Shown here one piece after another: positions 26,122-26,254 of a stretch of DNA of 64,000 nt (position 1 is its first letter; the number at the start of each line of letters is the position of its first letter). The translations under genes were made by a program, and so were the position numbers. Below the pieces are notes generated by a model that worked only from the letters and a program-made list of their open reading frames with translations, was not told the DNA's origin and ran no database searches. The DNA is taken from the NCBI RefSeq assembly GCF_030384885.1, contig NZ_CP128613.1; one strand, 5' to 3'. The DNA is from Escherichia coli (lineage in GTDB: Bacteria > Pseudomonadota > Gammaproteobacteria > Enterobacterales > Enterobacteriaceae).

Positions 26122-26158
26122 AACGAATATCCCCTGATTAATTCCGCGCGCAGTATAA

Positions 26159-26174
26159 ACGAAAACGTTTGCGC
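26159..26174. promoter_or_regulatory. PurR box in purT promoter region
   Basis: acgaaaacgtttgcgc, reverse complement GCGCAAACGTTTTCGT matches the PurR operator consensus; 38 nt upstream of purT start. Confidence 0.7.
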
Positions 26175-26217
26175 GTGTCTTTATTGTTGATGTTGATTTC
26201 CCAATCGAGAAGAAATA

Positions 26218-26237
26218 TACTGTATAAAATCACAGTT
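26218..26237 (+). promoter_or_regulatory. LexA (SOS) box upstream of yebG
   Basis: taCTGTATAAAATCACAGtt, CTGT-N8-ACAG, about 20 nt upstream of yebG start. Confidence 0.8.
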
Positions 26238-26254
26238 ATTATGAGAGGCTGCAA

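Follow-up and report, generated by a model that had tools for sequence, protein, structure and literature searches.

The closest described system is the purT-yebG region of Escherichia coli K-12, for which Belliveau 2018 (PNAS, PMC6003448) and Cho 2011 (NAR, PMC3159470) give the same genes, the same 133-bp spacer and the same placement of PurR as those described below. In K-12, PurR ChIP-chip revealed an in vivo peak at purT with the motif ACGAAAACGTTTGCGT, with an enrichment of 2.00 in the presence of adenine versus 1.02 in its absence, and purT was counted among the directly repressed genes, its repression by adenine being dependent on purR (Cho 2011, PMC3159470). Sort-Seq was applied to both promoters of the K-12 spacer and uncovered, in that of purT, a repressor site that is visible only with adenine and lies between the -35 and -10 elements; in the accompanying pull-down PurR was enriched on this site only with hypoxanthine, and deletion of purR abolished the effect of the site (PMC6003448). 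The same work reports the induction of yebG by mitomycin C in K-12; for Sort-Seq, yebG has been a validation case and purT a discovery case. The yebG gene is a classical SOS gene, with a heterology index of 6.3, a 4.4-fold induction by AZT and a 9.7-fold LexA dependence (PMC11228462), and it belongs to the UV-induced gene set with a common LexA motif (PMC3009722).

The window analysed here is the whole 64-kb stretch of E. coli DNA, in which the purT/yebG spacer occupies positions 26122-26254 (133 bp), between the purT ATG at 26121 on the minus strand and the yebG ATG at 26255 on the plus strand, according to both the open reading frames and the annotation. The local gene order is edd, eda (kdgA), purT (minus), yebG (plus), yebF, yebE and ptrB. 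Of 5426 complete E. coli genomes, 5425 match the 1 kb around the spacer and have both the gene pair and the spacer; strain 2013C-4282 is 100% identical over this kilobase, and the open reading frame coordinates agree with the RefSeq gene coordinates of that strain over 50 kb. Compared with K-12, the spacer is 96.2% identical and the LexA box is unchanged; the five single-base differences fall at 26174, in the PurR box, and at 26187, 26201, 26205 and 26209, outside the assigned elements. This is the ordinary E. coli purT-yebG control region, already dissected in K-12, and contains nothing new. Beyond correct annotation its importance is small: it is a textbook-style pair of simple-repression promoters. 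The features assigned to it are the following, by position in the window.

24943 to 26121, minus strand: purT coding sequence, formate-dependent GAR transformylase (392-aa open reading frame; RefSeq annotation of the identical strain 2013C-4282; Pfam ATP-grasp and PurT_C).
26152 to 26157, minus strand: predicted purT -10 hexamer TATACT (consensus scan; conservation 0.98 over 59 spacers).
26159 to 26174, no strand assigned: PurR operator ACGAAAACGTTTGCGC, filling 16 of the 18 bases between the purT -35 and -10 hexamers (top PurR matrix site of the window; conservation 0.97).
26176 to 26181, minus strand: predicted purT -35 hexamer AAGACA (consensus scan; conservation 0.84).
26193 to 26198, plus strand: predicted yebG -35 hexamer TTGATT (consensus scan; TTG invariant in a 14-sequence alignment; conservation 0.70).
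26216 to 26221, plus strand: predicted yebG -10 hexamer TATACT, its last four bases inside the LexA box (consensus scan; invariant in the 14 sequences; conservation 0.97).
26218 to 26237, no strand assigned: LexA (SOS) box TACTGTATAAAATCACAGTT, with 17 bp between its end and the yebG ATG (LexA matrix score 20.53 bits; equal to the K-12 yebG box in Table 4 of PMC3009722; conservation 0.89).
26255 to 26545, plus strand: yebG coding sequence, DNA damage-inducible protein YebG (96-aa open reading frame; annotation; Pfam YebG, E = 4e-34).

Our preferred reading, to which we assign a probability of about 0.93, is that two independent simple-repression switches stand back to back in the 133-bp spacer, each operator serving only its own gene. 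That the operators lie close together is a reflection of how the genes are ordered in Enterobacteriaceae and Erwiniaceae rather than of a common mechanism. The back-to-back control of divergent promoters by purines and SOS in a 133-bp spacer had been put forward in a preliminary description of this DNA; the scan bears it out, and for K-12 it had already been published. In the proposed mechanism, a PurR dimer carrying hypoxanthine or guanine would bind the 16-bp operator between the purT -35 and -10 elements and, when purines are plentiful, would exclude RNA polymerase from the purT promoter. A LexA dimer on the 20-bp box covering the yebG -10 element and the likely start site would block yebG, and DNA damage would release the gene through RecA-stimulated self-cleavage of LexA. 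The sequences, scores, hexamer geometry and conservation behind this scheme were computed here; binding, repression and induction are taken from the literature on the K-12 alleles.

In the divergent SOS pair uvrA/ssb, a single operator serves both directions. The LexA box of this pair has been called 'shared' (PMC8072944), and uvrA/ssb is like purT/yebG in having a repressor site within a short common spacer. The purT/yebG pair is unlike it in possessing two operators for two repressors, each lying within only one promoter.

Recognition of the two operators

The PurR operator, ACGAAAACGTTTGCGC on the plus strand, reads GCGCAAACGTTTTCGT on the purT strand. It departs from ACGCAAACGTTTGCGT by two mismatches and is the sole site with three or fewer mismatches in the 64-kb window; set against the 16-bp imperfect palindrome ACGNAAACGTTTGCNT with its central CG, 13 of the 14 specified positions agree. 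It is located inside the purT -35/-10 region, as defined by the predicted hexamers and backed by their conservation. A PurR matrix was built from the 27 ChIP-chip motifs in the table of Cho et al. 2011 (PMC3159470), with purT left out. On this matrix the box scores 21.25 bits, which is the best value in the window and among the top training sites, the next site of the window reaching 12.9 bits; the score is 20.8 bits when the identical purHD site is left out of the matrix as well. None of 200 dinucleotide-shuffled versions of the window equalled the score of the box. The consensus-grade PurR operator reported at 26159-26174 in the preliminary description thus has exact coordinates and stands far above the background of the window in the matrix scan that had been suggested as a check.

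The LexA box has the 20-bp form TACTG(TA)5CAGTA with its invariant CTG-N10-CAG frame, and differs from the idealised 20-mer at five positions, all but one of them within the AT-rich centre. A search of the 64-kb window with the idealised 20-mer, allowing up to three mismatches, gave zero matches because the yebG box carries five, and matrix scoring was used instead. The shorter pattern CTGT-N8-ACAG occurs once in the 64 kb, at the yebG box, where both arms are intact. With a matrix derived from 17 boxes of Table 4 in PMC3009722 (yebG left out), the yebG box scores 20.53 bits; only the known ruvA box, itself a member of the training set, ranks higher (21.23 bits), and the site after these two reaches 11.5 bits. 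The best score per shuffle had a mean of 11.3 (sd 2.65), with a single outlier at 21.24. The box starts within the predicted yebG -10 hexamer and spans the inferred start site. As for the earlier description of this box, the range 26218-26237 is indeed that of the canonical 20-bp box TACTGTATAAAATCACAGTT, but the 16-mer quoted for it, CTGTATAAAATCACAG, is really found at 26220-26235. A candidate CRP site inside the LexA box (TGTAT-AAAA-TCACA) was rejected by inspection, its half-sites being 4 bp apart instead of 6.

Consensus matches can arise by chance, and one or both boxes might be functionless matches of this kind in the present strain. The bare patterns lend themselves to this explanation: a shuffled window is expected to contain 0.72 matches to CTGT-N8-ACAG and 0.51 matches to the PurR consensus with three or fewer mismatches, so the patterns alone are weak evidence, and it is for this reason that the matrices were built. 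The full matrix scores, however, lie far over those of the shuffles, the positions of the boxes fit promoter-occluding sites exactly, conservation of both boxes extends from Escherichia as far as Erwinia and Yersinia, and the K-12 alleles have been the subject of direct experiments (PMC6003448, PMC3159470, PMC11228462). The explanation by chance is extremely improbable and effectively refuted.

Promoter anatomy and conservation across Enterobacterales

A consensus promoter scan of positions 25900-26700 identified exactly two sigma-70-like promoters, one per strand. Their predicted spacers measure 18 bp for purT and 17 bp for yebG, and the predicted -35 hexamers stand back to back, 11 bp apart. 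From this geometry we infer start sites near 26145 for purT and near 26228 for yebG, approximately 83 bp from each other. For K-12, Belliveau 2018 likewise inferred purT -10 and -35 elements flanking the PurR site, and shifted the yebG polymerase site by 9 bp from an older computational annotation (PMC6003448). Separately, genomic SELEX of K-12 DNA with the RpoS holoenzyme (PMC5493296) gave a peak of 63.2 in the yebG/purT spacer and a stronger one, of 390.6, within purT; these peaks hint at a stationary-phase promoter besides the two sigma-70-type promoters.

A scan with the YebG protein, using one genome per species, yielded 80 loci ranging from Escherichia to Yersinia. At 59 of these loci purT and yebG stand next to each other and diverge, with a spacer of 128-141 bp and, in one species, of 261 bp; this adjacent type includes Escherichia, Citrobacter, Salmonella, Klebsiella, Raoultella, Kosakonia, Phytobacter, Pantoea and Erwinia. 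In 20 of the 80 loci, including those of Yersinia, Serratia, Edaphovirga and Chimaeribacter, dbpA is found between purT and yebG. The intervening gene encodes a 460-aa DEAD-box helicase with the DbpA RNA-binding domain and is oriented like yebG; purT is therefore divergent from dbpA in these 20 genomes, and the starts of purT and yebG are 1669-2074 bp apart.

In 79 of 79 loci of both types, purT is preceded by a strong PurR box, scoring 18.8-23.8 bits, and yebG by a strong LexA box, scoring 16.9-29.5 bits. Where dbpA intervenes, the PurR box (20-24 bits) is 56-87 bp away from the purT ATG; the LexA box (18-29 bits) keeps a distance of 16-38 bp to the ATG of yebG, and of 24-27 bp in 18 of 20. 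Among the adjacent-type loci, the LexA box is 14-19 bp from the yebG ATG in 59 of 59 species. Only one of the 80 loci, that of Yersinia nurmii (2250-2500), lacks a good LexA box in the 250 bp upstream of yebG, the best site there scoring 7.6 bits; no purT start was found within the 2.5 kb examined at this locus.

The 59 adjacent-type spacers (the window and 58 species) were aligned, and conservation was scored as the mean majority fraction. The best conserved blocks of the spacer, at 0.89-0.98, are both boxes and both -10 hexamers. Elsewhere the values are 0.54 between the -35 hexamers, 0.47 in the yebG promoter spacer, and 0.65 and 0.74 in the two leaders. Two promoters, each equipped with its own operator, have left a clean phylogenetic footprint in this alignment.

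Independence or coupling of the two switches

A PurR or LexA dimer covers roughly its own site of 16-20 bp and a few flanking bases. The edge-to-edge gap between the operators is 43 bp to the LexA 20-mer or 45 bp to its 16-mer core, the latter being the figure of about 45 bp given in the preliminary description; the distance from centre to centre is 61 bp. Across the 59 adjacent-type species the gap is 41-45 bp in 54, 51-55 bp in four and 170 bp in one. This is not the arrangement of a shared or interacting divergent operator: the gap varies, and each box stays with its own gene across dbpA. The suggestion that the two repressors could interfere with each other finds no support, and three observations speak against it: both -35 hexamers lie in the 43-bp gap, the spacing varies, and dbpA splits the pair in 20 species. 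The operators behave as separable modules that travel with their own genes across Enterobacterales, and cross-talk between the repressors is therefore unlikely. In the Sort-Seq report, the features of each promoter are confined to its own 60-bp stretch and called directional (PMC6003448). Our search of the literature found no report of purT/yebG cross-regulation and no direct test of cross-talk. The two switches thus appear independent, a view argued from geometry and comparative data. A conserved helical phase, considered on account of some 10 extra bp in four species, was rejected, the extra bases (8-13 in those four, 128 in a fifth) being too few in cases and too irregular in length.

The opposite reading is that the switches are coupled, so that purine status influences how strongly SOS induces yebG, or conversely. 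Such coupling could arise in three ways: upstream of yebG, at about -54 to -69 of its promoter, PurR might alter the contacts that the polymerase alpha C-terminal domain makes there; two polymerases might compete for -35 regions only 11 bp apart; or divergent transcription might link the promoters through local supercoiling. RNA polymerase has a typical footprint of -55 to +20, so that with about 83 bp between the inferred starts the two footprints would overlap upstream. The constancy of the gap, 41-45 bp in 54 of the 59 adjacent-type species, could also be taken in favour of coupling, but this narrow distance is largely explained by the promoters themselves (1 + 6 + 11 + 6 + 17 + 2 = 43 bp). 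Moreover, the 11 bp that separate the -35 hexamers count among the least conserved parts of the spacer (0.54), and they tolerate 8-13 extra bases in four species and 128 in one. The RpoS holoenzyme peak in the spacer (PMC5493296) adds that promoter traffic may exceed the two promoters. Against this stand the retention of both boxes where dbpA parts the genes, the Sort-Seq data, in which regulation was seen only in separate 60-bp stretches (PMC6003448), and the lack of any report of cross-regulation in the literature searched. Taken together, these data make coupling very unlikely. It is similarly improbable that PurR occupancy or purT transcription tunes the basal level of yebG or its ON/OFF heterogeneity, an effect that could follow from the 11-bp spacing of the -35 hexamers and from the position of PurR at about -54 to -69 of yebG; if true, it would tie a branch of the SOS response to the supply of purines. 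Two independent switches remain our preferred reading.

Natural variation and other features of the window

The only difference from K-12 inside either box is a T to C change in the PurR box, at its outermost base (26174), which lowers the score of the box from 23.8 to 21.3 bits. The C allele is carried by 1536 of 5426 complete E. coli genomes (28%) and the T allele by 3856 of 5426; the C allele is found in E. albertii too. With this change, the 16-mer of the window is identical to the motif listed for the K-12 purHD operator in Table 1 of Cho 2011 (PMC3159470), and is therefore a sequence already known to be bound by PurR, although the purHD operator belongs to another gene and another promoter context than that of purT. 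Judging from the sequence, the C allele of the window probably behaves like the T allele of K-12.

The yebG LexA box varies in nature as well. Of 5426 complete E. coli genomes, 4343 have the exact K-12-type box together with its flanks; other E. coli strains carry single-base variants at the centre of the box or beside the right-hand CAG: ...AAAACCACAG in ST131, ...TAGAATCACAG in O157:H7, ...AATCTCAG in P4 and ...AAAAATACAG in SCPM-O-B-8794. The orthologous gene of Salmonella enterica has its box 17 bp from the ATG, as in E. coli, and responds strongly to DNA damage, with a 41-fold induction (Cells 2021, PMC8072944). The Salmonella box harbors natural single-base variants (PMC8072944), as does the E. 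coli box in its centre, and one Salmonella variant alters the size of the yebG ON subpopulation (PMC8072944); the sequence itself is unlike that of E. coli, being TACTGTATATAAATACAGTT in S. arizonae. Natural variants of both the PurR and the LexA box could serve studies of operator strength versus expression noise, as has been the case for Salmonella yebG.

A more drastic change is seen in E. coli MS 21-1 (NZ_CP146670.1, 3047000-3049200), in which the ISL3-like element ISEc53 is inserted inside the yebG LexA box, at the equivalent of positions 26224-26231 of the window. This copy of ISEc53 carries a gene of the ClbS/DfsB family and is accompanied by an 8-bp target duplication, ATAAAATC; the insertion severs yebG from its -35 and -10 elements and from the left arm of the LexA box.

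The second strong LexA box of the window, CGCTGGATATCTATCCAGCA at 10958-10977 (21.2 bits), precedes ruvA (11027) by 50 bp; it is the SOS box already known for ruvAB. In the annotation of the identical strain, two genes for hypothetical proteins, at 9188-10237 and 10275-10859 on the plus strand, are situated between yebB (8717-9280, minus strand) and ruvA, and the first overlaps the start of yebB. In K-12, yebB and ruvA are direct divergent neighbours (Shimada 2017, table); the extra genes may therefore represent a small, strain-specific insertion immediately before the ruvA SOS box. Between yebY and pphA, at 33757-33901, Rfam models detect the overlapping antisense small RNAs SraC/RyeA (minus strand, 175 bits) and SdsR/RyeB (plus strand, 114 bits), both known in E. 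coli. Finally, an Rfam match to the cspA thermoregulator (135 bits) at 49391-49851 extends over yobF and a csp gene annotated as cspE.
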